The position numbers were made by a program, and so were the translations under genes. A stretch of 58,194 nucleotides of DNA from an uncultured Candidatus Saccharibacteria bacterium (GTDB lineage: Bacteria > Patescibacteriota > Minisyncoccia > Phycocordibacterales > DATGWK01): NCBI GenBank assembly GCA_964428845.1, contig CAYRZH010000001.1, forward strand, positions 1-58,194, read 5' to 3'. Shown here one piece after another: positions 2,832-31,438 of this stretch. The notes beneath the pieces are model-generated. The model did no database searches and had not been told where the DNA came from. It saw only the letters and a program-made list of their open reading frames with translations. Each line of letters begins with the position of its first letter. Within the stretch, counting starts at the first letter, position 1.

Positions 2832-4589
2832 TTATAAATTCAGAACTTCCTCGAAAGGAATTTGTCTGTTTAGTGCTTTGACGATGCCGTCTTCTTTCAT
2901 CGTAAGCATTCCCTTTGATCTTGCCATTTTGACGATGTCGATTTCTGTTGGGTTTTTCAGAATAAGGGCCTCTAGATCTCTATCCATCTCAAGCACCTCC
3001 ATGACTGCCACTCTACCGCGGGTACCACTAGGGCAGTTGGGGCTTGGTGCGGCACGATAAACTTGCTTGCCGGTAGGAATCTCTTTTCTAAATTTCTCCG
3101 GAAGATCTTCGAACTGTTTGTCGATCATCATCTTTATGCCACCCTCGATAGGCATTGGCTCGCCCGAATCTGGACAAAGGACGGTTACAAGGCGTTGGGC
3201 CATAGCAAGGATCAGGGTTGGGGCGATAAGGTAGGGGTCAACTTTCATATCAATAAGACGCGGGATGACACCGACAGCATTGTTGGTGTGAATAGTGGCG
3301 AGCACCAAGTGGCCAGTAAGTGCCGCCTGTATGGCAAGACCTGCGGTCTCTTCGTCACGAATCTCACCGACCATAATGATGTCGGGGTCTTGTCGGAGAG
3401 TAGTACGAAGACCGTTTGCGAAGGTATAGCCGATCTCGGGACGAACTTGGGACTGGTTTATACCCTCGATGTTGTACTCGATCGGATCTTCCAAAGAAAG
3501 GATGTTGTCCTTTTCGTGATCGAGCTCGTTTAACATAGAGTAAAGCGTAGTTGTCTTTCCGGAGCCAGTTGGGCCAGAGATAAGTATCAGTCCATATGGT
3601 CGAGCGATAGCCCTTCTCACTGCGGCAATATTTTTCTCACTTAAGCCAAGATTGTCGAGTTTCTTTACGCCACGATCATGGTCGAGAATTCTCATCACGA
3701 TCTTTTCGCCATAGTACGTCGGGAAGGTCGACACACGAAAATCTATCTTTCTACCCATGATGGTGGCAGAAAAACGGCCGTCTTGCGGCTTACGTTTTTC
3801 GTCGAGTCTCATATTGGAGAGGATTTTTATGCGGGAAACGACAGACGAGTGGACCTTGGCCGGCAAGACCAGACTTGTGTTTAAGACACCGTCAACTCGA
3901 AAACGTACACGAACTGTGTCACGTAGATGCTCGATATGCACGTCTGAAGCATTGCCTTCTGTGGCATATTTGAGGATCGTAGTGACAATCTTCGTAATCG
4001 GAGCAACTTCGACTATTTTTTCGTCCTCCTTCGTGCCTTTCTTCCCTTTCTCTTCGGCTTTTTGTTTGTCGCCACCAGGAAGCTCACCGTGATCTAGATC
4101 GAAAGTGAGACCCTGACCTTCACCTGGAGGTTCGAGCTCTGAAAGTGCCTGCCCGACTTCTTCGGACAAGCCCTTATACATGGCCATAACCTTGCCAAAG
4201 TCTTCTTCGGAAATGATGAAGAGCTTGAAGGGCATGCCAATTTTCGAAGATATAAAATTTAGGGCGTCTTTGGCTTCTATATTGTCTGGATCGACGAGAC
4301 CAACTTCGAGAACGTTTTCATTTACCTCGATCGGGACGATTTTGTAGTGAAAAGCCGACTCTTCGGGAATAAATGAGAGGATCTCGCGGGGAATAATCCG
4401 ACTACCAAGCTCTTTTACGGGCATTTCATAATACTCGCCGACGGCCTCAAGCACGTCAGTGATAGAAAGACCTCTGCGCACAATGGCCTGCTCTAGAGTT
4501 GACTTGGTCGAACTAACCTCCTTTTTTATGGAAGCCACATCTCCCTTTTCTATGAGTTTTTTTTCTACGAGTATTTCAAGAAGATTCAT
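2832..4589 (-). CDS. pilB: Type IV pilus extension ATPase (GspE/PilB)
   Basis: N-terminal MshEN/T2SSE_N-like region, GPTGSGKTTT, LRQDPDIIMVGEIRD. Confidence 0.92.
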   Translation of the reverse strand: MNLLEILVEKKLIEKGDVASIKKEVSSTKSTLEQAIVRRGLSITDVLEAVGEYYEMPVKELGSRIIPREILSFIPEESAFHYKIVPIEVNENVLEVGLVDPDNIEAKDALNFISSKIGMPFKLFIISEEDFGKVMAMYKGLSEEVGQALSELEPPGEGQGLTFDLDHGELPGGDKQKAEEKGKKGTKEDEKIVEVAPITKIVTTILKYATEGNASDVHIEHLRDTVRVRFRVDGVLNTSLVLPAKVHSSVVSRIKILSNMRLDEKRKPQDGRFSATIMGRKIDFRVSTFPTYYGEKIVMRILDHDRGVKKLDNLGLSEKNIAAVRRAIARPYGLILISGPTGSGKTTTLYSMLNELDHEKDNILSLEDPIEYNIEGINQSQVRPEIGYTFANGLRTTLRQDPDIIMVGEIRDEETAGLAIQAALTGHLVLATIHTNNAVGVIPRLIDMKVDPYLIAPTLILAMAQRLVTVLCPDSGEPMPIEGGIKMMIDKQFEDLPEKFRKEIPTGKQVYRAAPSPNCPSGTRGRVAVMEVLEMDRDLEALILKNPTEIDIVKMARSKGMLTMKEDGIVKALNRQIPFEEVLNL

Positions 4590-6238: not shown

Positions 6239-7402
6239 TTATTTGCTGTCTCCCAGACGCCTAAGGGCAACCCCTAGAGCAACAGCGAATTCCGGTCCAT
6301 TCTGTTTTAAGACATTTCCTAGAAATGCAGGGGCTTCGACCTTGGAAAATGGGTCGGCGAGGACGACTGGCATTTCGAGATTCTTTTGGGCGAGTTCGGC
6401 GAAGCCTTTCATTCCTGATCCGCCTCCTACGAGTACTGTTTTTTGAATACTTTTTTTGTATTTAGCTTGATAATTGAGGGCCGCCCGACGAGCTTCCGAA
6501 AAAACAAAGTCTAGAGACAGAGAAATAACTTCGGCCATATCTTTTTTATCTGGTTCTTTGCTCCAACCGGTAGTGCGCTTCAGAATTTCGGCCTTTTCTA
6601 CTGATATGGAGAGTGATGTGGCCAAAGCCATGGTTATGTCTTGAGATCCGCGACTTATAGTGTGAGAGCTACGTACGATGCCGCGCTCGACGATGTAGAG
6701 CTTGGTAGAAGCGGCACCTGTATCAAGTATCATGACCGGCTCGACATTTTGGTCCAAAACCGAGCGAATAGTGCTAAAAATTTCGATCTCAAAGAAATTG
6801 GCGTCGAGACCCGTCTTATTTACAATCTCCTGGTAGTCTCTAATAGTCTCATTGTGTATAGCGACGAGAAGGACATCTGTTTTAGGAACTGTAGATTTTT
6901 CAATCTTTTGTCCTTCCATTTGCCCGGCCAATTCTTCCCCTTCTCCGCCTGGCCCAGCGCCAAGCGGCGTATCGCCTTGTTTGAACTGATCTCTCGGAAC
7001 AATAGACCAGTCGAGGCTTACCTCTGAAATAGGCACGGGAATGTATTTCCGCGCTTCTATAGGGATCATCTGGGCAAGTTGCCTATCCGAGACAAGAGGC
7101 ACCTCGACAATACTCATGAGACTTGAAGCGAAGGGAATAGCCACACCGCCTCGCTTGGTGGTTGTTTTTGCTTCGCGCAGTATGTCGGTCAGGGCAACGA
7201 TGATTTGTTCGACTGGGAGGTTGGTGGCGCGACCGATTTCTACTTTGGCATATGGCCCGAGAGCCAGTGCCCCATAGGTCTCAAGAATAGCGCGGCCGTG
7301 CTTTTGCTTGATTTGGACAACTTTAATAGCCGACGAACCGATGTCGATACCGAGGACGCTGGTTTCCTTCTTTTTAAAAAAATTTGAAAAGAAATTTGCC
7401 AT
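6239..7402 (-). CDS. pilM: Type IV pilus assembly protein PilM
   Basis: LGIDIGSSAIK actin-like motif, IEARKYIPVP, LDTGA, VLVGGGS. Confidence 0.92.
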   Translation of the reverse strand: MANFFSNFFKKKETSVLGIDIGSSAIKVVQIKQKHGRAILETYGALALGPYAKVEIGRATNLPVEQIIVALTDILREAKTTTKRGGVAIPFASSLMSIVEVPLVSDRQLAQMIPIEARKYIPVPISEVSLDWSIVPRDQFKQGDTPLGAGPGGEGEELAGQMEGQKIEKSTVPKTDVLLVAIHNETIRDYQEIVNKTGLDANFFEIEIFSTIRSVLDQNVEPVMILDTGAASTKLYIVERGIVRSSHTISRGSQDITMALATSLSISVEKAEILKRTTGWSKEPDKKDMAEVISLSLDFVFSEARRAALNYQAKYKKSIQKTVLVGGGSGMKGFAELAQKNLEMPVVLADPFSKVEAPAFLGNVLKQNGPEFAVALGVALRRLGDSK

Positions 7403-7440
7403 ACGAGATGGAAGATTGGGTGAATTATATCACAAAAAAT

Positions 7441-8193
7441 ATGACTTTCATTTCAAAAATTTGGCGAGTAGTGGGTTTGTTTTTTGATTTTTTATTTCCA
7501 AGGGACGCGCGCGTTCGGAGGCTTGAAGAAATGGGCTCGAGCGAGATCTCGGCGGCGCTTCCGGCGGCGCGGCCGTTTGAAAATCTTCCTGCAGAGCTGG
7601 ATCGCGGCAGATTTTTTGCCCTCTTTGACTATAGCAACGAGACGGTGAAGCAGATTGTTTGGGAGATAAAATATAGGAAAAATCTGGTTCTCGCCGCGAA
7701 AATGGGTGAACTTTTGGCGGGGAGGGTTTTGGAGGTTGTGAAAGCTTCAGATACTCGTCCAGATGCTCGCCCAAATGCTCGCGCGGAAAATTTTCTTTTC
7801 CTTCCTATCCCCTCTTCTCGGCGGCGGCGTAGGTGGCGAGGGTTCAATCAGACAGAACTTATCGCACAGGAAGTGGTGAAAAGCCTGAGAGAAAAAGTAG
7901 ATTCTCCAAACTCGTCTTTTGAGATATTGTCGGCCGGTTTTTCATATGCAGACGTTTTAGCCAAGATAAAAGAGACTCCCCCGCAGTCGTCTCTCCCCGA
8001 GCGCCACGAACGTCTCACAAATCTGGTTGGAGCATTTGATCTAAAAGATGCGGCCGCTGCCGGACTCGTGCGCGGAAAAAATATTGTGATCATAGACGAT
8101 GTCATCACTACGGGGGCGACGATGAGGGAGGCGGTGCTGGTATTTTTGCGCGCCGGAGCAAAGAATATTTATGGATTTTCGGTGGCGCATTGA
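7441..8193 (+). CDS. comF: ComF family competence protein (PRTase-like)
   Basis: PIPSSRRRRRWRGFNQTELIA and IIDDVITTGATM motifs; start uncertain (7408 or 7441). Confidence 0.85.
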   Translation: MTFISKIWRVVGLFFDFLFPRDARVRRLEEMGSSEISAALPAARPFENLPAELDRGRFFALFDYSNETVKQIVWEIKYRKNLVLAAKMGELLAGRVLEVVKASDTRPDARPNARAENFLFLPIPSSRRRRRWRGFNQTELIAQEVVKSLREKVDSPNSSFEILSAGFSYADVLAKIKETPPQSSLPERHERLTNLVGAFDLKDAAAAGLVRGKNIVIIDDVITTGATMREAVLVFLRAGAKNIYGFSVAH

Positions 8194-8879: not shown

Positions 8880-8967
8880 GGAGAGTTGGCTGAGCTGGCC
8901 GAAAGCGCCTCACTGCTAACGAGGTAGGGTCTAAAAGCCCTCGTGGGTTCGAATCCCACACTCTCCG
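8880..8967 (+). tRNA. tRNA-Ser(GCT)
   Basis: GGAGAGT/ACTCTCC acceptor stem, anticodon arm CCTCA-CTGCTAA-CGAGG, long variable arm, GTGGG-TTCGAAT-CCCAC T arm, G73. Confidence 0.95.
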
Positions 8968-10484
8968 CAAATCGTAACTTCGCGTAAAGACAATGCGGAC
9001 GCGCGCCGTGATGGGCGCACGGCGCGCGACAATTTTCCTCGCCGCTTCGCGGCGAAATGGCTCGGCGGGGGGAATTCAAAAAGGGCGGATTTGTCACGAA
9101 CCCGAGGGTTCGTTCCGATTTTTTGGACGAACGACTTGATTTCGTGCAAATTGTCCGATGTCGCCAAAAAATCGGCTTGTTTCGTATCTAAAATCCATGC
9201 CCGCAGGGGTTCGACCCAATTTTTCTTCCCGCGTTCAAAATCTTTCATTTTGGCTTGCAAAGACGCAGAGGCGCGCATGATGTCGTCTTTCTTGGAAAGG
9301 TAGATTTGTTTCGGCACTTCGCCGTCAAGATACACGCTCACCAGTTTTTCCATGCGCGTCTCTTGCGCTTTGATTTGAGAAGAAAGATTTTGAACCTCGC
9401 TCCCCGTAGTGGCGGATTCCTCGCGCTCCCATTTCTCGACTTCCGCCAGCATCCAGTCCGTGTAGCGTTCGGGGAGCGAGATTGTTTGAAGCCGTGCCTT
9501 GATTTGCTCCGCTAAATCTTCTTCGCGCAGATATGGTTGCGAACAGCGACCGCGCTTTTTGGAACAGCGATAATACCGATATTTCGTACCCCAGCGATTG
9601 ACCGCCCATTGCGCGCTTATCATCGAGCCGCACTCGGCACAACGGAATAGTCCGGTAAATGGAAAATCATGCCGAGCGCGGCGGTGGCGCGGCCGCTCTT
9701 TCGTTTTCAAAATCTTTTGCACGGCTTCAAACAATGCGGGAGAAAGAATTGGCTCAAAGTTTCCATCAAACCATTCGCCCTTGTGCTTCACGAAGCCGAT
9801 ATATGCTCTGTGCGTCAAAAGCCGTTTGATGGAAACTTTGGCAAGTGGCGTTCGGTTTTTTGAGACCACGCCGAGTTCCGCCAAAAATTGCGCGAGAGAA
9901 ACGAACGAGTGTGCGCCTTTCGCGTACTCCTCAAAAGCAAGACGGACAATCCGCGCTTCGGTGGGGTGCGGCTCAATATTGCGAATATGCGGATTGTTTT
10001 GATACCCGAAAGGCGCAAGTCCGAGCCACTCTTTCCGGCGCAATTTTTGGCGGATTCCACGCTTGATATTCTCGGCAAGATTGTCCGAATAGTATTTGCT
10101 CTGACCGAACGCCACTTGCAACATAAAGAGCCCCTGCGGGGTCGGTTCAAACCAAAATGTCGGAAAGCGCAAAGACACCACCTTGCGCGTGTCTACGGCG
10201 TAAATAACCCTGCCTCCGTCAATAGAATTACGCGCAAGGCGATCGGGATGCCACGCCAATATCCCGAAATTGTCGCCACTCTCGATTTTTGCCATCATCT
10301 CGCCAAACACTTCACGCCCCGGTGTCTTTGCGCTTTTTGACTCTTGAAATTCCGCAAGAATTTCAAGATTTTCTCTACGCGCATACTCACGAAGCTCAAA
10401 GAGTTGAGCTTCAATAGACATCACTTGTCTATCATCATCTTCGGTGCTTTTTCTCGCGTAGAGAAAATATTTTGGTTTGTTCAT
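8931..10484 (-). CDS. Large serine recombinase (resolvase + recombinase + Zn-ribbon domains)
   Basis: YARKST catalytic Ser motif, DRLAR, GLAPFGY, GLFRCAECG..YYRC zinc ribbon; 3' end runs antisense into tRNA-Ser. Confidence 0.93.
   Translation of the reverse strand: MNKPKYFLYARKSTEDDDRQVMSIEAQLFELREYARRENLEILAEFQESKSAKTPGREVFGEMMAKIESGDNFGILAWHPDRLARNSIDGGRVIYAVDTRKVVSLRFPTFWFEPTPQGLFMLQVAFGQSKYYSDNLAENIKRGIRQKLRRKEWLGLAPFGYQNNPHIRNIEPHPTEARIVRLAFEEYAKGAHSFVSLAQFLAELGVVSKNRTPLAKVSIKRLLTHRAYIGFVKHKGEWFDGNFEPILSPALFEAVQKILKTKERPRHRRARHDFPFTGLFRCAECGSMISAQWAVNRWGTKYRYYRCSKKRGRCSQPYLREEDLAEQIKARLQTISLPERYTDWMLAEVEKWEREESATTGSEVQNLSSQIKAQETRMEKLVSVYLDGEVPKQIYLSKKDDIMRASASLQAKMKDFERGKKNWVEPLRAWILDTKQADFLATSDNLHEIKSFVQKIGTNPRVRDKSALFEFPPPSHFAAKRRGKLSRAVRPSRRASALSLREVTICGECGIRTHEGF
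8965..9095 (+). repeat. Inverted repeat A, left copy (131 bp)
   Basis: Exact reverse complement of 10506-10636, checked base by base. Confidence 0.97.
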
Positions 10485-10505
10485 AATTGGTTTTGATACG
10501 AAACA

Positions 10506-10794
10506 GACAAATCCGCCCTTTTTGAATTCCCCCCGCCGAGCCATTTCGCCGCGAAGCGGCGAGGAAAATTGTCGCGCGCCGTGCGCCCATCACGGCGCGC
10601 GTCCGCATTGTCTTTACGCGAAGTTACGATTTGCGGTGAAATATTACACTTTGCGCGAACCTTTTTTGAGGGGAACTGACCCGCCTCCGCTTCGCTCCGG
10701 CGGGAAGCTCGGGCGCGGCGGGATTCCTCCCCCCAACCCCCTCCTCCCGCCGCGCCCTCGCTTGAATGCAATCCGGCGAAAAAATGCGGCTCCA
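10506..10794 (-). repeat. Central 289-bp junction: inverted copies of A (10506-10636) and B (10631-10794) sharing the core
   Basis: Matches 8965-9095 and 13012-13175 in reverse complement. Confidence 0.97.
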
Positions 10795-10879
10795 GATTGA
10801 GAAAAGAATGGAAAGTTGATATAATTCTACTGCAAGTCATAAAATGTATTATATCATTTTCCATACATTATAATCTACT

Positions 10880-11080
10880 ATGTCCACAATAGGCAAAAAC
10901 ATCAAACGATTTCGACAAGAAAAAGGGCTTTCGCAAGATAAGCTATCAAAACTGGCCGATTTGTCTTTGAATACGGTCGTAAAAATTGAGTTGGATGATA
11001 GCCCCAACCCCACTATTGAGACAGTTCAAAGGATTGCGAAAGCCCTTGAGGTGTCGGTTGATGAATTATTAAAAAAATAA
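10880..11080 (+). CDS. XRE-family HTH transcriptional regulator
   Basis: IKRFRQEKGLSQDKLSKLADLS..IE..PNPTIETVQRIAKALEV. Confidence 0.93.
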   Translation: MSTIGKNIKRFRQEKGLSQDKLSKLADLSLNTVVKIELDDSPNPTIETVQRIAKALEVSVDELLKK

Positions 11081-11084
11081 AAAT

Positions 11085-11489
11085 ATGGACAACGAATCAC
11101 TTATAAAAACAGCAGAGGGCGTTCTCAACCGACACACGGATTCAAACGGGCGCTTGCACGGCGATGTTGGAGCGGCAATCCTTGGCAGAAATGGGAAGAT
11201 GTATACCGGTGTATGTGTTGATACGCCGAGTTGGGGTTTGTGTGCCGAACGAAGCGCGCTCGCCACGATGATTACTGATCGAGAGTACAATTTCAAAAAA
11301 GTCGTTGCCGTGTGGAAAGACGACAAAACCGGCAAACTTCATGTACTAGCGCCATGCGGCCACTGTCGCCAATTTATGCGTGACATCAGCGAAGAAAATA
11401 TGGAGGCGGAAGTGTTGCTCGGACGCGATAAGTCCGAACCTCTAAAAAATCTAATTCCGCATCACGAATGGCCGGAGGCAATTGAATAA
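11085..11489 (+). CDS. Cytidine deaminase-family protein
   Basis: VGAAIL, CAE and PCGHCRQ zinc motifs. Confidence 0.88.
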   Translation: MDNESLIKTAEGVLNRHTDSNGRLHGDVGAAILGRNGKMYTGVCVDTPSWGLCAERSALATMITDREYNFKKVVAVWKDDKTGKLHVLAPCGHCRQFMRDISEENMEAEVLLGRDKSEPLKNLIPHHEWPEAIE

Positions 11490-11493
11490 AATT

Positions 11494-12330
11494 ATGCCAG
11501 AAGAACAGCAACAAGAAGAAATAAAAATTGATCAGTACCTAGAATCACCGAAGGCGTTTCATCTTGAGATGCCTCTCTATCATGCGCTTGATTTGAGCAT
11601 TGGCGTAGTTGCGGAAAAAGTTTTTGAGCACATTGCTCACTCGGGGACAATGGATGCCTATTGTATTTGGTGCGACAAAGAAAGTGTTTTTGATGCCGAG
11701 GAATATGTATACGGTAAAACATACGGGGCTTGGAAGCGTGAGGATTTTGGATTCAGACGAAACTCCTACAAGTGTACTCGCAATAATAATCATCGCTACT
11801 ACATTTATTTTTTCAAAGGCAAGGATGTTCTTATGAAAATCGGTCAATGGCCATCTGTAGCTGATTTTCAGATTCCGCAAGCAGAAAAATATCGGAAAAT
11901 CCTCGGCGAAGAAGAGTACAAAGAGCTCACGCGCGGTATCGGGCTTTCGGCGCACGGCGTTGGTATCGGCTCTTTTGTCTATTTACGCCGAGTTTTTGAA
12001 AATCTGATTGAGGAGGCCCATCAAAAGGCGAAAACCGAAGACGCATCATTTTCGGAGGAATCGTACGCACGAGCGAGAATGGACGACAAGATTGAAATGG
12101 TACAGGAACACTTGCCAGCGTTTCTCGTCGAGAATAGATCGCTCTACGCAATTATGAGTAAAGGCATTCACGACTTGACCGAAGATGAATGCCTGCAGTA
12201 TTTCGAGACAGTAAAAATTGGCATTGAGCAAATCCTCGACGAGAAAATTATTGCTAAAGAGAAAGCTGACAAAGCAGCCGCCGCTCGCGCCGCCATTCAA
12301 AAAGCACACGGCAAAATTAATGGGTCATAA
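11494..12330 (+). CDS. Hypothetical protein (possible DUF4145/HEPN-like C-terminus with N-terminal Cys pair)
   Basis: CIWCDK; GIGSFVYLRRVFENLIEE; LSKGIH-like segment; family not confirmed. Confidence 0.6.
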   Translation: MPEEQQQEEIKIDQYLESPKAFHLEMPLYHALDLSIGVVAEKVFEHIAHSGTMDAYCIWCDKESVFDAEEYVYGKTYGAWKREDFGFRRNSYKCTRNNNHRYYIYFFKGKDVLMKIGQWPSVADFQIPQAEKYRKILGEEEYKELTRGIGLSAHGVGIGSFVYLRRVFENLIEEAHQKAKTEDASFSEESYARARMDDKIEMVQEHLPAFLVENRSLYAIMSKGIHDLTEDECLQYFETVKIGIEQILDEKIIAKEKADKAAAARAAIQKAHGKINGS

Positions 12331-12874
12331 AATGAATATACTCGGTTTACAACGCGGAATAGTGCGTCTTGAACCACACAATCCCGAATGGCGGAAACTT
12401 TTTGAAACGGAAAAATCGGCTTTGCAAAAAATTCTTGGCGACAAGTTTATCGCCGCCGAGCATGTCGGCTCAACCGCCATTCCCGACCTTAAAGCAAAGC
12501 CGATTTTAGATTTGATGTTGGCAATACCGGATTTGGATGATTGGGAGTGGCTCAAAGAGCCGCTCGCCAAACTCGGCTACGAGTTTCGCCGCGACTTTAG
12601 AAACGAACAAGGACATATTTTGTTCGTGAAAGGGCCGGAGGAAAACCGAACGCACTATCTTAAAATAACCGAACTCAATTCCGACTTTTGGACGGAACAC
12701 ATTTTGTTTCGCGATTATCTCGTCAATAATCCGCAGTACCGCGAGGAATACCAAAAGTTGAAAGAAAATCTGTTTGACTCTCACGCGGGCAACCGCGAGC
12801 CGTATACGAAAGGTAAAGAGGAGTTTGTGCGGAAGATTCTCAAACTCGCAGGATTCAAGGGCAAAGTGCTCTAG
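12320..12874 (+). CDS. GrpB/UPF0157 family nucleotidyltransferase-like protein
   Basis: EHVGSTAIPDLKAKPILD, FRDYL, Y..GKEEFV. Confidence 0.88.
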   Translation: MGHKMNILGLQRGIVRLEPHNPEWRKLFETEKSALQKILGDKFIAAEHVGSTAIPDLKAKPILDLMLAIPDLDDWEWLKEPLAKLGYEFRRDFRNEQGHILFVKGPEENRTHYLKITELNSDFWTEHILFRDYLVNNPQYREEYQKLKENLFDSHAGNREPYTKGKEEFVRKILKLAGFKGKVL

Positions 12875-13011
12875 GGAGCCAACCCCGCCGTTTTATAATT
12901 TTCTTCAAAACGGCGGGTTGATTGTGCGCGCACTGGGCGGGAGGGGAGCACAATACCAATTTTGTATCTTGCCATTCAGTTTTGATAAAATGGTATGGCA
13001 AGATTCTTTTT

Positions 13012-13175
13012 TGGAGCCGCATTTTTTCGCCGGATTGCATTCAAGCGAGGGCGCGGCGGGAGGAGGGGGTTGGGGGGAGGAATCCCGCCGCGCCCGAGCT
13101 TCCCGCCGGAGCGAAGCGGAGGCGGGTCAGTTCCCCTCAAAAAAGGTTCGCGCAAAGTGTAATATTTCACCGCAA
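13012..13175 (+). repeat. Inverted repeat B, right copy (164 bp)
   Basis: Exact reverse complement of 10631-10794. Confidence 0.97.
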
Positions 13176-13220
13176 TGACCGCGCAGGATGTCTGCGCAGC
13201 AGATATCCGAGCGGGCATCG

Positions 13221-13349
13221 TGCGGATGCGGGATTCGAAAGCCGGAGCGAAGTTGCGATGTGAGCAAAGCGAACCGCAACGAGCGAGGCGGGGTCGCGCA
13301 AAATTTGCGAAGCAAATTTATGCGTGACCGAATCCCACACCCTCCGCCA
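13221..13349 (+). repeat. Hairpin element with tRNA-Ser-3'-end-like arms
   Basis: TGCGGATGCGGGATTCGAA (antisense-like tRNA tail), conserved hairpin ending GTGACC, then GAATCCCACACCCTCCGCCA (sense tRNA tail). Confidence 0.8.
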
Positions 13350-13415: not shown

Positions 13416-14948
13416 ATGGTCATAATCCTCAATTTCGGAAGCCAGTTTGCCCACCTTATAGCAAGGCGCGTGCGGGATCTCGGCGTCAAAGCCGAGATTT
13501 TGCCTTTTGGTGCTTCGGCGTCTGAGATTTTGAAGCACAATCCTGCCGGTATCATTTTCTCTGGAGGGCCTGCATCTGTGTTGGAGAAAGATAGTCCTCG
13601 ACCAGACAAAGAAATATTTAAGCTTGGTATTCCAGTTCTTGGCATCTGTTACGGGCACCAAGTTATGGCACACATGCTTGGTGGTAAGGTCGTTAAGGGT
13701 AAGCATCGAGAGTTTGGCAAAGAGATCTTGAGTATTAAAAATAAGAAAGGAATTTTCCAATCACTTTCTTTAAAAGAGGTCGTTTGGTTCTCTCACGGTG
13801 ATCAAGTATCTGTACTACCGAAAGGACTTAAGCAAACAGCATCTACTACTGGCTGCAAATATGCCGCGTTTGCCGATTCAGAGAATAACTTCTACGGAAT
13901 TCAATTCCACCCAGAAGTAACTCACACTCGGCATGGAGAAAAGTTACTCAAAAATTTCTTGTTCTCAATCTGCAAGGCCAAGAAGAACTGGAAAATCAGT
14001 TCAGTAACAGAAAATATTATTGCAGAGGTTAAGAGTGAGGTTGGAGATAAGCATGTCGTAGTAGGCATCTCTGGGGGTGTCGATTCGTTAGTAGCCGCCA
14101 CGCTTATCCATAGGGCTATTGGCAACAATCTCCATGCGGTGTTTGTAGATACCGGTCTACTACGCAAAGGAGAGGTGAAACAGGTGGCCTCCTATCTGCG
14201 TAAGCATGGATTCAAGAAGCTTCATGTAATTGACGCAAGCCAGCTTTTCTTAAAACGATTAAAGGGCATTTCTGATCCGGAGCAAAAACGAAAAATTATC
14301 GGCCACAACTTTATTGAAGTATTTGAAAAGACGATTAAGAACGAATTCAAAAAGCATACGATCGTGTATCTCGCTCAAGGCACCATTTACCCTGACCGCA
14401 TAGAATCCGCTTCAACCTCTAAAACGGCGGCGAAGATCAAAAGCCACCATAATCTTACGCTTCCTGAAAAGATGGGCTTTAAGATTCTCGAACCAATAAA
14501 GGATTTATACAAAGACGAGGTGCGACGAGTAGGGCTAACTCTTGGACTACCGAGAGAGTTACTTTGGAGACACCCGTTCCCGGGTCCTGGGCTTGCTGTT
14601 CGTATTGTCGGAGAAATTACCGAAGATCGTCTCCGAATCCTTCGAGAGGCTGATGCTGTATTTATTGAAGAATTAAGAAAGGCTGGAGAATACGAAAAAA
14701 TATGGCAAGCATTTGCCGCACTGCTTCCAGTTAAAGTGGTTGGTGTTATGGGCGATGGCCGAACCTACGAATATGTAATAGCCTTACGAGCGGTTGACTC
14801 CATAGACGGAATGAGTGCAGATTGGCACAAAATCCCCAATGAACTTCTGGAAAAGATATCGAGTACGATTATCGGAAAAGTGCGAGGAGTAAATCGGGTG
14901 CTTTACGATATCACCCAGAAACCACCGGCTACTATTGAATATGAATAA
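13416..14948 (+). CDS. guaA: GMP synthase (glutamine-hydrolysing)
   Basis: NFGSQFAHLIARR, GICYGHQ, QFHPEV, SGGVDS, HPFPGPGLAVR, KPPATIEYE. Confidence 0.97.
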   Translation: MVIILNFGSQFAHLIARRVRDLGVKAEILPFGASASEILKHNPAGIIFSGGPASVLEKDSPRPDKEIFKLGIPVLGICYGHQVMAHMLGGKVVKGKHREFGKEILSIKNKKGIFQSLSLKEVVWFSHGDQVSVLPKGLKQTASTTGCKYAAFADSENNFYGIQFHPEVTHTRHGEKLLKNFLFSICKAKKNWKISSVTENIIAEVKSEVGDKHVVVGISGGVDSLVAATLIHRAIGNNLHAVFVDTGLLRKGEVKQVASYLRKHGFKKLHVIDASQLFLKRLKGISDPEQKRKIIGHNFIEVFEKTIKNEFKKHTIVYLAQGTIYPDRIESASTSKTAAKIKSHHNLTLPEKMGFKILEPIKDLYKDEVRRVGLTLGLPRELLWRHPFPGPGLAVRIVGEITEDRLRILREADAVFIEELRKAGEYEKIWQAFAALLPVKVVGVMGDGRTYEYVIALRAVDSIDGMSADWHKIPNELLEKISSTIIGKVRGVNRVLYDITQKPPATIEYE

Positions 14949-15993
14949 AGTTATGGAAAAACAATCTCAACTAGTCGGTAATTTTAGTGAGACGGTTTCG
15001 GTTACGAAACTGTTTTTATCTGAATTTGAAAAAGTCTTTGGAAATACGGAAATAAAAAAGTCGTTACCAACAATAGAGGGAGTCTACATGTACGCGATCA
15101 TTATGCATTTAGGGAAGATTTATAGTAAATCATCAAATGAGCATTTTAGTTTGGATAAATTTAAAAATCTCTTTCCAGAAACTACTGAGAGGGTCAACAA
15201 AATGTATGATGATCACAAAGATATCATTGGAAAAGTTAAAAGTAACCGGGATAAGTTATTTGCGCATACCGACAAAGATTTTTTAAAGTTAGGTTTTTCC
15301 CAAGCACACATTGATAAACTAAAGAGTCTTTATCAAACTGACTTTTCTCGTATTAAGGCGACCGGGAAAGAGCGAGAACGATATACCCCGTTAGATCTTA
15401 ATGATGATTTAGCTGAAATTAAACAGATGTTACAAGAAGCAGACAAATTATGGTGGGACTGTATTATGTTGATTGATTTTGAAAATAAACAAAATGTTAA
15501 AACAAGTGACTTTGAAAATGTATTTTGGGATCTTTTATTTACTTATCGACAATTGTTGCTAAATGGAAATTTACATAAGAGAGTAAATACCGAGGCTTAC
15601 CAAAAGAATGCCGCTACATGGAGTACTATACTTCTCAGTTTAGAGACTGGGGTTGTACTTGGCTTAGCAAAATTACTTGAAAAGAGTTATTTTGGAAGAA
15701 AGTTTGATAGTCAGGAATTAAATCAAATCTCTGAAAAAATTATCAATATGCGGAATCGTCTTATTGCTCATAATGATCTTTCCGTAATGCGAAACAAGAA
15801 ATCCTTTCTCGAAGAGAATCAATTAACGGGTACAGATATTATTAACATGATCGACGCTTTGAAAAGGAGAGCTATTCAATATCAACTAGCATTTAATGCA
15901 AAAATTGAAGTCCAAAAGCTATTTGAAGAAACTACTAGAAATGCTATGGATGACCTCGATGATTGGCTAAGGTCTTTCAGAATGCCGCTGTAG
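14941..15993 (+). CDS. Protein with two AbiU2-like HEPN domains
   Basis: Repeated pattern MHLGKIY..RDKLFAH.D and LGLAKLL..RNRLIAH.D; visibly AT-rich. Confidence 0.6.
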   Translation: MNKVMEKQSQLVGNFSETVSVTKLFLSEFEKVFGNTEIKKSLPTIEGVYMYAIIMHLGKIYSKSSNEHFSLDKFKNLFPETTERVNKMYDDHKDIIGKVKSNRDKLFAHTDKDFLKLGFSQAHIDKLKSLYQTDFSRIKATGKERERYTPLDLNDDLAEIKQMLQEADKLWWDCIMLIDFENKQNVKTSDFENVFWDLLFTYRQLLLNGNLHKRVNTEAYQKNAATWSTILLSLETGVVLGLAKLLEKSYFGRKFDSQELNQISEKIINMRNRLIAHNDLSVMRNKKSFLEENQLTGTDIINMIDALKRRAIQYQLAFNAKIEVQKLFEETTRNAMDDLDDWLRSFRMPL

Positions 15994-30298: not shown

Positions 30299-30703
30299 GG
30301 GGATGTCAGTTTTGACAAGGAAATCAAACTGATCGGTGCAAAGCAGAGCTCGAGTGACTCTCAAATCCGCTCGAAACACTAGGTGCAAACAATCTAGTTG
30401 CCAAAGCAAAGTCATTGGTTTCTCCATATTTTGGAAAGACCGACTTTGCCTTCGCTTACGCTTCGGCCTAAGCGACGTCGCGCTGGTCTCGTCTGAGAAA
30501 CTAGTTGCGGTGTCATAAACTTCAGACTGGAGCATGTTCCCTTCCCGGCTCATGCTCGAGACGTTTCGGGAATCGGTGCGTGGATGTTTTGTTTGTTTTA
30601 TAGTCCACGCCCCTAGATCCGCCTTCGGCGGAAAAAACATACTACGCTTTGTAGATTCAGATCGGTTTCTTTCTTGGACGCGAGTTCGATCTCGCCATCT
30701 CCA
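30299..30703 (+). ncRNA. ssrA: tmRNA
   Basis: 5' GGGGATG pairs with 3' CATCTCC-A; T-loop GAGTTCGATCTC; tag ORF GCC AAA..GCC TAA ending FAYASA; next to smpB. Confidence 0.93.
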
Positions 30704-30708
30704 CAACA

Positions 30709-30746
30709 AAAGAAAATGCCCGCATAAATGCGGGTGTTTTCTTTTG
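30709..30746 (+). terminator. Rho-independent terminator after ssrA
   Basis: AAAGAAAA-TGCCCGC-ATAAAT-GCGGGTG-TTTTCTTT. Confidence 0.75.
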
Positions 30747-30755
30747 TCTGACGTC

Positions 30756-30878
30756 GAGATGGCGAGATCGAAAGGCGGAGCGAATGCCGAGCGAGCACGC
30801 GAGGCCGCGAGCCGGGGTAGCGGAAATTTTCGAGCGACGGCGAGAAAATTATCCGTGACCAATCTCGCCATCTCCACA
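30756..30878 (+). repeat. Hairpin element with tmRNA-3'-end arms
   Basis: 30756-30772 is the exact reverse complement of 30685-30701; 30862-30878 is a direct copy of 30689-30705; GTGACC precedes the direct copy. Confidence 0.88.
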
Positions 30879-31399: not shown

Positions 31400-31438
31400 G
31401 GGTCGCGCAAAATTTGCGAAGCAAATTTATGCGTGACC
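31400..31438 (+). repeat. 39-bp hairpin identical to 13291-13329
   Basis: GGGTCGCGCAAAATTTGCGAAGCAAATTTATGCGTGACC present at both loci. Confidence 0.95.

Follow-up and report, generated by a model that had tools for sequence, protein, structure and literature searches.

A tRNA-adjacent serine-recombinase island of Patescibacteria that carries an inverted copy of its own joined ends

The island of ∼4.2 kb that adjoins a tRNA-Ser gene in the DNA stretch analysed here (58,194 nt, hereafter the window) is a real mobile element that carries, in its middle, an inverted copy of its own joined ends. Literature searches found no published description of such an element, and a serine-recombinase element design of this layout is apparently undescribed so far. 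We think it probable that the island is an intact, Patescibacteria-specific element of a large serine recombinase (LSR), in which the internal inverted joint is the control region of the LSR gene and inversion of the arms is a consequence. According to this model, the island would belong to a large family of compact integrative elements, driven by the LSR and inserting just 3′ of the tRNA discriminator base. The attachment site would be the joint of the two ends, that is, the end of repeat B followed by a core of 5-6 nt, which copies the 3′ end of the tRNA, and by the first part of repeat A (B.A), and the internal copy of B.A would be, first of all, the LSR gene's own upstream control region.

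Anatomy of the island and its repeats

Read along the window, the order of the parts is tRNA-Ser, A, LSR arm, A′/B′, cargo arm and B (Table 1), and the element starts at the first base 3′ of the tRNA-Ser discriminator base. An earlier, sequence-only reading of this DNA had described two nested exact inverted-repeat pairs beside the tRNA-Ser gene, with CCGCAA at all three junctions. Both the repeat search and the sequence itself confirmed this description: the hexamer found at the tRNA.A junction recurs at 10631-10636 (as TTGCGG, at A′.B′) and at 13170-13175 (B.flank). A and A′ match exactly over 131 nt with a spacing of 1410 nt (134 nt at 99% when the arms are extended to 8962-9095 and 10506-10639), and B and B′ are 100% complementary over 164 nt with a spacing of 2217 nt. 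A chance origin of the A and B pairs is excluded, because a search of the window for other inverted repeats of at least 30 nt found none longer than 31 nt. The 6 nt shared by A′ and B′ are the core, and the two repeats together reproduce the joined ends (B.A) completely and in inverted orientation, with the HTH and LSR genes diverging on either side. After excision, the element would form a circle with a pair of 289-bp sites in inverted orientation and would exist in two isomeric forms; its size, put at 4205 bp in the sequence-only reading, holds (1410 + 2217 + 2 × 289).

Table 1. Features of the island and its borders in window coordinates.
Feature	Position	Strand	Basis
tRNA-Ser(GCT), integration target	8880..8968	+	ARAGORN; Rfam tRNA 53.3 bits
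LSR gene, 517 aa	8931..10484	-	Resolvase PF00239 2.1e-21, Recombinase PF07508 1.5e-14, Zn_ribbon_recom PF13408 1.2e-13
Core CCGCAA at tRNA.A junction (attL)	8965..8970	+	read in sequence
Repeat A, outer copy, left end of element	8965..9095	+	inverted-repeat search
Hairpin and T-run ACGAACCCGAGGGTTCGT TCCGATTTTT, inner edge of A	9096..9123	+ (tRNA strand)	terminator scan
Repeat A′, inner copy, likely LSR 5′ leader	10506..10636	-	inverted-repeat search and sequence
Repeat B′, inner copy	10631..10794	-	inverted-repeat search
Candidate promoter in B′, across core into A′ and LSR	10641..10669	-	-35 TCAAAA, 17 nt, -10 TAATAT; sequence and family alignment
XRE-type HTH regulator, first cargo gene, divergent from LSR	10880..11080	+	PF01381 1e-14
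Cytidine-deaminase-like protein	11085-11489	+	PF00383 2.8e-08
278-aa protein, no family given	11494-12330	+	ORF
GrpB-family protein	12320-12874	+	PF04229 3.9e-46
Terminator-like hairpin AACCCCGCCGTTTT...AAAACGGCGGGTT, 3′ of last cargo gene	12881..12919	.	read in sequence
Repeat B, outer copy, right end of element (attR = B.flank)	13012..13175	+	inverted-repeat search
Mirror copy of candidate promoter, reading out of element	13137-13165	+	sequence
153-nt module, then degenerate tRNA-Ser 3′ end CGAATCCCACACCCTCCGCCA; outside element	13176..13348	+	sequence

The DNA to the right of B had been taken for plain host sequence. Instead, it holds the 153-nt module and the degenerate tRNA-Ser 3′-end copy (13329-13348), and the last 39 nt of this flank are repeated exactly at 31400-31438. 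The flank looks like the scar of an older integration of another kind, not like native host DNA.

Conservation of the layout and of the internal joint

Among 8000 candidates scored, 5052 proteins were related to the LSR at E ≤ 1e-20, the top 120 of them with 68-100% identity, and a relative was encoded in 569 of the 599 matched stretches from GTDB species genomes. Identity to any phage or plasmid LSR was only 22-29%. The best PDB matches, and the nearest solved structures, were the SPbeta and A118 integrases, and the NCBIfam matches to CcrB and XisF were weak. The nested double repeat was present in 21 related loci (22 including the window), two of them in chromosome-level records (OY970382.1 and CP060229.1). 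The A pair was found in 67 of 80 related loci and, in about 67 of the 80, a tRNA abuts the distal A arm as it does in the window. The proposal that tRNA.A is attL, B.flank is attR and the internal joint is an inverted B.A fits the 22 loci, with a core that co-varies with the tRNA 3′ end; the internal attP, which the sequence-only reading had suggested looking for in homologous Patescibacteria islands, is present in the 21 further loci.

The same loci bear on the possibility that the layout is an assembly artefact, made by fusing integrated with excised forms or by folding a repeat. Exact repeats near the k-mer or read length and the metagenome-type assembly of the window would favour such an artefact, but the layout recurs in 21 independent assemblies obtained with different assemblers, the chromosome-level records among them, the repeats match within a locus and differ between loci, and functional features are consistently arranged across loci. 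We regard the probability of an artefact as negligible. Contig ends were common ∼50 nt inside B′, as is expected of a real repeat in assembly graphs.

At least nine tRNA species are targets (Ser, Glu, Arg, Gly, Leu, Val, Lys, Ala and Pro), with insertion just 3′ of the discriminator base. The family core, nCnCA (5 nt), varies with the target (CCGCA for Ser; TCACA for Glu/Pro; GCACA for Gly/Leu/Arg; GGACA for Lys) and the matching core is repeated at the internal joint. Crossover probably takes place at these cores. No non-coding block is more conserved than the B.A joint, which in 37 of 38 loci precedes the LSR gene as TCGAAA-n2-GGTTCGCGCAAAGG-n-TAnnAT-n-TCA directly followed by the core; the dyad symmetry of the joint is weak (0.33 complementary positions vs 0.25 expected). 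Repeat A measures 131 nt and repeat B 164-434 nt across the family. The arms show concerted evolution: most pairs are 98-100% identical although their LSRs are only 61-84% identical to that of the window, and the differences between arms lie mostly far from the core (38 in nt 1-60 vs 103 in nt 61-130). Gene conversion probably homogenises the repeats.

On the minus strand, A′ spans the 131 nt from the core to the LSR start region, with the ATG 21 nt beyond, and because it fills this stretch it is the likely 5′ leader of the LSR gene. Palindromes of differing sequence occur at equivalent A′ positions in 30 loci, and RNAalifold backs only one of the A′ hairpins. In the model, the B half, between the divergent HTH and LSR genes, would contribute a promoter-like box reading across the core, and the A half would be the 131-nt leader. 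The promoter that B may hold is a candidate only: a consensus scan of the window missed it because its -35 is weak, a higher-scoring promoter-like site towards LSR was found by that scan in unique DNA (10896-10867), and only ∼60% of the loci have a perfect TAnnAT as the -10-like box. The terminator-like hairpin at 9096-9123 could stop read-through from the tRNA, or from B in the circle; its block is kept in 33 of 40 aligned A arms and absent in seven Glu/Pro-targeting loci (L067, L068, L072, L076, L079, L080 and partly L069). The hairpin behind the last cargo gene was not reported by the terminator scan, its loop being ∼12 nt vs the 3-8 nt that the scan accepts. The internal copy would be kept inverted for stability, because direct repeats would delete the LSR gene and inverted ones only flip it. 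That 131 + 164-434 nt are duplicated, rather than ∼60 nt, is not accounted for by a control-region role alone.

Arm inversion, the recombinase tail and the cargo arm

Long near-identical inverted repeats bracket each of the two unique arms of the element, and the arms do invert in nature. The arm flipping foreseen in the sequence-only reading is supported by natural isomers, known from short-read assemblies of different samples. L083 and L102 are 99.9% identical with the LSR arm inverted relative to the cargo; in L102, the A-LSR-A′ block shared with L083 (1676 nt, 1 mismatch) is followed by the L083 cargo in reverse complement (99.87% over 6974 nt). L027 has the LSR 5′ end against the tRNA, so that the LSR start follows the tRNA.A joint, and in L096 the LSR 3′ end is followed by A′.B′ and then by the HTH gene. 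In L082, an identical 399-nt B.A stands on either side of the LSR gene, as expected of the excised circle. The orientation at the tRNA is strongly biased, with the LSR 3′ end in about 67 of 80 loci and the 5′ end in one. This bias (∼67 to 1) indicates that flipping is not at equilibrium and that inversion is rare or selected against.

In L083/L102, the only arm marker fits both a crossover at the core and homologous recombination in the outer 122 nt. The SPbeta integrase synapses two attP sites, coiled-coil contacts being thought to block recombination, and canonical LSRs likewise synapse two attP sites without recombining them (PMC11722253), so flipping by the LSR itself is not the default expectation. 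Inversion would rather proceed through homologous recombination.

The LSR, whose catalytic motif YARKS lies close to the N-terminus, has its stop codon within the antisense of the tRNA-Ser gene, and repeat A, on the minus strand, codes for approximately the last 45 residues ahead of the junction. The frame is open through A in 48 of 48 loci and intact to the 3′ end in 44 of the 48, with the stop beyond the core in all of those. Since the frame crosses the putative crossover point, the last residues of the LSR vary with the junction: the final 10-30 are coded by the antisense of the tRNA where the LSR 3′ end lies against it, and form a conserved ...EIxxFARTFFE... tail where that end lies against B′. 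The tail predicted for the A′.B′ junction, ICGEILHFARTFFEGN, is present in P0121 and P0122, cluster mates of the window protein, and a census counted 93 tRNA-type and at least 20 B′-type tails. The B′-coded tail is alike across the family, and the tRNA-side tails are arbitrary in length and sequence.

These tails could also belong to a programmed switch, in which the LSR recombines its own inverted sites (attL × internal attP, or attP × attP in the circle) and each flip alters both the LSR promoter (B or tRNA read-through) and the C-terminal tail. Inversion and integration would then set LSR activity or stability, providing mobility control without, or beside, a recombination directionality factor; none was identified in this analysis. 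A switch would agree with an LSR frame that always crosses the core, with the contrast between family-wide B′ tails and arbitrary tRNA-side tails, with the core-proximal 60 nt of the arms being kept most alike, and with L027, where the LSR gene lies directly downstream of the tRNA without an intervening terminator, whereas loci in the usual orientation have a terminator-like hairpin at the inner edge of A. We nevertheless judge it quite unlikely: flipped forms beside tRNAs are very rare, the conserved tail may only mirror the DNA block GGTTCGCGCAAAGG read antisense, and the block thought to act on attP × attP synapses of SPbeta (PMC11722253) stands against it.

As for the cargo arm, bounded by B, it behaves as an exchangeable cassette. 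Other cargo stands on the same backbone (89-98% identity) in L096, L104, L107 and L108, and homology stops at the inner edge of B′. In 12 of 23 cargo arms an HTH gene occupies the LSR-proximal end on the same strand, divergent from the LSR, and none has it at the opposite end. The NCBIfam matches of the cargo proteins were all under the curated cut-offs. The cargo of relatives (64 ORFs in 22 cargo arms) includes regulators, restriction-modification systems, Abi-like ATPases and metabolic enzymes.

Cargo exchange with breakpoints at the inner edge of B could mean that the island is made of two separable modules, an LSR module (A-LSR-A′) and one or more cargo cassettes (B′-cargo-B), the repeats being mainly portable homology for module exchange and stacking and A′.B′ a mere meeting point. 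This would fit the tandem and mixed arrays in L018, L019 and L097/L098, the loci that have an A pair without a B pair within 7 kb, and L105, whose A arm matches the window at 131 of 131 positions beside another tRNA-Ser isoacceptor while LSR homology fades. However, a serine recombinase cannot excise a segment between inverted sites, so neither module would be mobile alone; at the A′.B′ joint the two repeats overlap by exactly the core, and the joint is conserved as a unit; and the apparent LSR-less cassettes of L097 are bounded by copies of a self-complementary 50-80-nt sequence, not by att-like ends. Two separable modules thus appear an unlikely explanation compared with the single intact element that we favour.

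The sequence-only reading had likened the predicted circle to the yeast 2-micron plasmid, and in a plasmid phase of that kind the excised circle would replicate and, during its replication, recombinase flipping at the inverted repeats would amplify its copy number. In geometry the two agree (circular form, a pair of long inverted repeats, two unique arms with the recombinase in one, two isomers), and B′-joined LSR genes are frequent on short contigs, which repeat-induced assembly breaks explain equally well. Nevertheless, no Rep, primase, helicase or partition family was found (Pfam, PHROGs) in the 64 ORFs of the 22 related cargo arms, as judged on the 25 families matched by most members, and no replication or partition family in the window's four cargo genes (Pfam, NCBIfam). 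A search of IMG/VR contigs did not find the LSR, and plasmid and phage records held only relatives with <30% identity. Because no replication gene was found among the 64 cargo ORFs, amplification of the 2-micron type is unsupported, and we consider such a phase very improbable.

Comparison with known systems

The LSR is the same three-domain protein as the integrases and transposases SprA of SPbeta, A118/LI, phiC31, Bxb1, CcrAB of SCCmec, XisF and TnpX of Tn4451, and shares with these systems site-specific insertion in which identity at the crossover is limited to a few bases. Unlike them, the island holds a complete inverted attP copy and inverted repeats of 131 and 164-434 nt, its recombinase ORF crosses the att site, and the base after the discriminator of many tRNAs is its target.

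The yeast 2-micron plasmid is autonomous and has both an origin and partition genes; Flp, a tyrosine recombinase, acts there on FRT sites within 599-bp inverted repeats, and flipping is used for amplification. The predicted circle has the same arms, repeats and isomers, but the island has a serine enzyme, is chromosomally integrated with a biased orientation and has no replication genes found. In Hin, Gin, Cin and Pin, a serine recombinase gene also lies inside (Hin) or beside a segment with inverted sites, whose inversion changes expression. In contrast to the LSR, these are small enzymes (∼190 aa, with a C-terminal HTH) that use 26-bp sites, an enhancer and Fis, and their segments do not integrate themselves. 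DIRS1-type retrotransposons, which are eukaryotic and use a tyrosine recombinase, have inverted terminal repeats and an internal complementary region thought to serve reverse transcription; they and the island are alike in combining an inverted circle-junction copy inside the element with a site-specific recombinase.

Tycheposons and other tRNA-targeting islands are small and cargo-carrying, some with LSRs, and form tandem arrays. They share with the island the habit of carrying cargo next to tRNA genes; to our knowledge, direct repeats of the 3′ part of the tRNA form their borders and no inverted att copy lies inside them, and it is by this copy that the island differs. In mycobacteriophage integration-dependent immunity, attP lies within the repressor gene and integration changes the C-terminus, with a demonstrated effect on stability. 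Both frames span attP, that of a repressor there and of a recombinase here, where any effect is putative. Finally, in Tn4451 (tnpX), IS911 and IS30, one end contributes a promoter element that is directed across the end-to-end joint at the recombinase gene, and this junction promoter is present only in the circle, whereas the permanent internal joint of the island would supply a promoter when the element is integrated too.

The element and its recombinase

The sequence-only reading had described two nested inverted-repeat pairs beside a tRNA-Ser gene, A/A′ (outer and inner copies) around the gene of a large serine recombinase (LSR) and B′/B (inner and outer copies) around a cargo arm. Both pairs exist and both are exact, CCGCAA was found at each of the three junctions, and the arithmetic of the predicted excised circle is correct: 4205 bp with two inverted 289-bp copies of the B.A joint, in which the element ends meet across a short core. 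Within the 58-kb window, no inverted repeats comparable to the A or B pairs were found elsewhere. The hairpin just inside the outer A copy would halt read-through from the tRNA.

Features of the element, its flanks and related modules (window positions unless a related locus, L number, is named)
Feature	Position	Strand or orientation	Description
ORF, 387 aa	6239-7402	minus	adjoins tRNA-Ser target; PilM-like (type IV pilus) by eye
ComF-like phosphoribosyltransferase	7384-8193		beside tRNA-Ser target; tRNA-ComF neighbourhood also in L081
tRNA-Ser(GCT)	8880-8968		integration target
A/A′ pair	8965-9095 / 10506-10636	inverted	131 nt exact; 134 nt at 99% with three flanking bases added
Hairpin and T-run	9096-9123	tRNA strand	just inside outer A copy; kept in 33/40 aligned arms
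LSR gene, 517 aa	10484 to 8931	minus	between A and A′; Resolvase, Recombinase and zinc-ribbon domains
B′/B pair	10631-10794 / 13012-13175	inverted	164 nt, 100%
Promoter-like site	10896-10867	directed at LSR	unique DNA; reported by consensus scan
Four cargo genes	between B′ and B	plus	XRE-type HTH, cytidine-deaminase-like, unknown protein, GrpB protein
Right-flank module	13176-13348; L019 4698-4888 and 8273-8463; L032 ~3740-3960		window copy terminates in a degenerate tRNA-Ser 3′ end
HEPN gene, AbiU2-type	14935-15993		PF18734, 5.6e-16; just past guaA, in a GC 0.30-0.36 stretch
tmRNA gene	30299-30706		
tmRNA 3′ end and its copy	30685-30715 / 30742-30772	inverted	81%; 26 nt downstream of tmRNA gene
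Exact repeat of the module's last 39 nt	31400-31438		0.7 kb downstream of tmRNA gene
Self-complementary sequence, 50-80 nt	L097 6831-6905, 8445-8552, 11328-11428, 13078-13152		copies match as direct and inverted repeats
tRNA-Ser with unusual anticodon ACT	L019 14508-14595; L066 8526-8613; L078 1822-1909		ARAGORN; two are LSR targets

The PF00239 catalytic domain was found at E = 2.1e-21 over residues 27-171 of a 537-aa ORF, the catalytic motif Y-A-R-K-S occupies residues 9-13 of the 517-aa protein, and DBD1 (PF07508, 1.5e-14) and the zinc-ribbon DBD2 (PF13408, 1.2e-13) lie C-terminal to the catalytic domain. Among solved structures, the SPbeta and A118 integrases come closest; the SPbeta alignment spans residues 8-399. 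LSRs carry a coiled-coil insertion in DBD2, and residues ~350-440 of the window protein are by eye rich in heptad-like charged/hydrophobic residues. The family is very large and unusually well conserved: 5052 proteins scored E ≤ 1e-20 among 8000 candidates, the best 120 show 68-100% identity and stem nearly all from Patescibacteria, and a relative is encoded in 569 of 599 candidate stretches from GTDB species representatives. No close relatives were found in IMG/VR, plasmid or phage collections, where phage and plasmid records matched only at < 30% identity. The window protein is an ordinary member of a known family. The architecture of the element appears to be undescribed: full-text literature searches returned no account of this family, nor of any LSR element that carries an inverted att copy internally. 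Serine integrases recombine attP with attB, and excision requires a directionality factor; no candidate for such a factor was identified, the sole recurrent cargo gene encoding an XRE-type HTH protein.

Conservation of the layout and of the attachment sites

The double-repeat layout is shared by related islands. By self-comparison, 67 of the 80 best loci have an A-type pair of 110-149 nt around their LSR gene, most of the others being interrupted by contig ends. A B-type pair of 150-434 nt, around 1.1-6.1 kb of cargo and abutting or overlapping the A pair by 0-14 nt, was present in 21 loci, so the internal copy that the earlier reading had proposed is a feature of homologous islands too. These 21 loci include the chromosome-titled records OY970382.1 and CP060229.1 as well as assemblies from several pipelines, and their repeats vary among loci yet agree inside each locus, usually at 98-100%. 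An assembly artefact was therefore rejected, the same layout recurring in independent related loci. Many contigs begin ~50 nt into B′, as is typical where a de Bruijn graph is broken by a true repeat. In about half of the public MAG contigs (L001-L080), no more than 100-560 nt separate the LSR gene from a contig end. As a recurrent source of contig breaks in Patescibacteria assemblies, these repeats are a practical matter for genomics.

A tRNA gene, convergent with the LSR gene, adjoins the distal A arm in ~67 of 80 loci; most targets are tRNA-Ser genes, and tRNAs for Glu, Arg, Gly, Leu, Val, Lys, Ala and Pro are also used. Repeat and tRNA share the last two acceptor bases and the discriminator at their boundary, after which comes CA, and the resulting 5-nt core nCnCA recurs at the internal joint and varies with the target (CCGCA, TCACA, GCACA, GGACA). 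As a result, the mature tRNA is left unchanged.

LSR attP and attB sites measure ~40-50 bp and show imperfect dyad symmetry about a central dinucleotide. The most conserved non-coding sequence of the family is the B.A joint, with the consensus TCGAAA-n2-GGTTCGCGCAAAGG-n-TAnnAT-n-TCA, then nCnCA, then nAnAGAAACTTC, found in 37 of 38 loci, and we take this joint to be the attP. Conserved blocks flank the core, dyad symmetry is weak (0.33 complementary positions vs 0.25 expected), and the invariant CA is a possible crossover dinucleotide. The outer motif of serine integrase sites, which DBD2 binds, lies 4-5 bp closer to the centre in attB half-sites than in those of attP (PMC11722253). GTTCG begins 29 nt before the core ends in B; in the tRNA T-loop this distance is 23 nt. 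The resulting shift of 6 bp is suggestive and no more than a lead, the common motif being just 5-6 nt. A universal T-arm together with a short copied core would account for close relatives reaching so many tRNAs. Across the nine different tRNAs after which such relatives insert, the short core alone changes, a hint that the integrase is readily retargeted, which would be of practical interest to genome engineering.

The internal joint and inversion of the arms

Along the LSR strand, B is followed by the core, A (131 nt), a further 21 nt and ATG, which makes the internal joint the region immediately upstream of the LSR gene. On its other side lies the XRE-type HTH gene, divergent from the LSR gene; an HTH gene occupies this LSR-proximal place in 12 of 23 cargo arms and never the far end. 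Near the end of B, 17 nt past TCGAAA, there is a -10-like box (TAnnAT in ~60% of loci, near-matches otherwise), from which a transcript would begin at about the core. In the window the consensus scan did not report this promoter, whose -35 is poor, and reported instead the site in unique DNA, also directed at the LSR gene; the promoter in B is thus a candidate. No known RNA was found in A or B with Rfam (E-value mode), and RNAalifold on 30 leaders supported one hairpin only, so that we do not claim a structured RNA.

The LSR reading frame is open across the entire A arm in 48 of 48 loci, compared with 36 and 17 for the other two frames, and where it remains unbroken as far as the 3′ end (44 loci), its stop falls 5-550 nt past the core. 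The final residues of the window LSR, ...ICGECGIRTHEGF, are encoded by the tRNA antisense, whereas joining of A′ to B′ would give the predicted end ...ICGEILHFARTFFEGN. This second tail is found exactly in P0121 and P0122, two proteins from JGI metagenomes that make up the rest of the window protein's 90% cluster. Among 212 proteins of the family, 93 had tails of the tRNA type and at least 20 of the B′ type, the latter mostly on 1.7-4.6-kb contigs. LSR genes whose 3′ end faces B′ are, on these counts, common.

Rearranged forms were found in related loci, all of them in short-read assemblies. L083 and L102, from separate samples of a single study (ERZ27315540 and ERZ27316241, respectively), share their cargo (HTH, restriction-modification, LexA-like, HEPN). 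Their A-LSR-A′ blocks show 1 difference in 1676 positions; beyond the block, L102 continues for 6974 nt as the reverse complement, at 99.87%, of the DNA that lies upstream of the LSR gene in L083. With respect to the cargo, the LSR arm has opposite orientations in the two loci. L027 reads tRNA-Ser, A and then the LSR start codon, the reverse of the usual orientation, and L096, which matches the window at 92-98% identity in LSR, A and B, reads LSR 3′ end, A′.B′ and HTH gene. In L082 an identical 399-nt B.A stands on both sides of the LSR arm; an excised circle or a head-to-tail tandem fits this, since a single integrated element cannot yield it, and it is from this locus that we infer the circle. 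Judged from these assembled sequences, heterogeneity of orientation within one population is likely. Beside tRNAs, standard and flipped orientations stand at ~67 to 1, and the HTH gene is at the LSR 5′ end in 12 of the 12 arms having one. In a pattern scan of metagenomes, the start of the window's A was found on six contigs; each was standard or B′-joined, and among them was no empty site or flipped copy beside the tRNA. The dominance of the standard form implies that flips are rare or that the flipped state is short-lived, for example if tRNA read-through would then drive the LSR.

Inversion could be catalysed by the LSR or result from host homologous recombination. The one position at which the two arms differ in L083/L102 was considered as a crossover marker and proved uninformative: it stays with the LSR arm, which is compatible alike with a crossover at the core and with homologous recombination in the outer 122 nt. 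Canonical serine integrases synapse two attP sites but are thought to be unable to recombine them (PMC11722253). The arms are near-identical within each locus despite wide divergence of the family, and in the A arms of 32 loci their differences cluster on the LSR-proximal side (38 in nt 1-60 from the core vs 103 in nt 61-130). On account of this near-identity, the core-distal differences and the presumed attP x attP block, we favour host homologous recombination with gene conversion for both flipping and homogenisation, a preference over the LSR-catalysed reaction that we hold at about even chances.

In the mechanism that we consider most likely, the island would be a compact LSR integrative element with the B.A joint as its attP, and the internal inverted copy would be the control region of the LSR gene. 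Placing this copy in inverted orientation would avoid gene loss by direct-repeat recombination, the price or benefit being that both arms could flip and that the circle would carry two sites and have two isomers. Recombinase tail and upstream region would both depend on the state of the element. We regard it as unlikely that the inverted att copy is a full switch, in which inversion, integration or excision would rewire the LSR promoter and tail, the element would sense and govern whether it is integrated, flipped or circular without a classical directionality factor, and the enzyme family would be retargeted to many tRNAs by the 5-nt core beside the universal T-arm alone. A possible use of the tail or promoter change as a switch is the point of greatest interest, and the layout offers a natural test case for directionality and expression wired into DNA geometry.

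Cargo, right flank and comparison with known systems

The 64 ORFs in 22 cargo arms of related loci encode regulators, AAA_21/AAA_15 Abi-like ATPases, DNA methyltransferases, restriction enzymes and metabolic enzymes. Replication, partition, transfer and virion families are absent from the 25 most frequent families listed for these ORFs, and no replication or partition family was found in the window cargo. The LSR/A/B backbone (window 8962-10805) recurs at 89-98% nucleotide identity with unrelated cargo in L096, L104, L107 and L108, in all of which homology stops at the inner edge of B′. The same backbone with other cargo and a breakpoint at this edge indicates that the cargo arm behaves as a B-bounded cassette open to exchange. 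The A arm of L105, beside a tRNA-Ser(TGA), is identical to that of the window (131/131). Tandem stacks of elements at a single tRNA occur as well (L018; L019, with three LSR units; L097/L098), the newest lying beside the tRNA. Such arrays mix related and unrelated LSR units, and in L018 the A′ of one unit directly abuts the B′ of the next. LSR-less inverted-repeat cassettes were considered in L097/L098 and rejected, these units being bounded instead by copies of a self-complementary sequence that, in L097, separate successive HTH-led cargo operons downstream of the LSR gene. In Patescibacteria, genomes are tiny and few mobile elements have been recognised. The family is nevertheless very common, with thousands of proteins and hundreds of GTDB species representatives, and carries restriction-modification, Abi-like and metabolic genes, which makes it probably a main route of gene exchange in this group.

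The degenerate tRNA-Ser 3′ end to the right of B raised the alternative that the true right boundary lies at this displaced fragment (13329-13348), with a crossover inside the tRNA. We rejected this boundary. Such a fragment occurs within 1.2 kb past B in only 3 of 21 loci, where it sits in a conserved 150-190-nt module with the joint GTGAC followed by CGAATCCCAC; the window fragment does not pair with the 5′ strand of tRNA-Ser(GCT), and the separate module, through its last 39 nt, also occurs past the tmRNA gene. These observations assign the fragment to a different, older event: the module is the scar of another element type, the LSR element being lodged between the tRNA and the scar. The scar has the appearance of a right end left by elements of a second, T-loop-targeting family. 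The sequence after the 39-nt copy loosely resembles the tmRNA 3′ end. Farther from the element, the HEPN gene may form a separate small defence islet.

To our knowledge, an internal inverted att copy, a reading frame across the att site, invertible arms and swappable cargo lie outside the textbook picture of serine integrases. Plasmids of the 2-micron type have their own replication origin, partition functions and the Flp tyrosine recombinase, acting at sites inside inverted repeats. The likeness of the predicted excised circle to such plasmids, drawn in the sequence-only reading, holds for the geometry (two long inverted repeats, two arms, isomers as in L083 vs L102) and fails for the replication and partition genes and for the enzyme, which is a serine recombinase. 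A plasmid phase with 2-micron-like amplification is argued against by the lack of replication and partition families among those listed, by the absence of the LSR from IMG/VR contigs and by phage and plasmid records matching it at < 30% identity only. Hin/Gin invertases are small serine recombinases (~190 aa) that end in an HTH and use short sites together with an enhancer; the protein described here has 517 aa and LSR domains, and its repeats measure 131 and 164 nt. Islander-type tRNA islands, like this element, insert at the tRNA 3′ end and keep the tRNA intact, but on both sides they carry the 3′ part of the tRNA as a direct repeat, usually 15-50 nt long, whereas the LSR element repeats the 5-6-nt core only.
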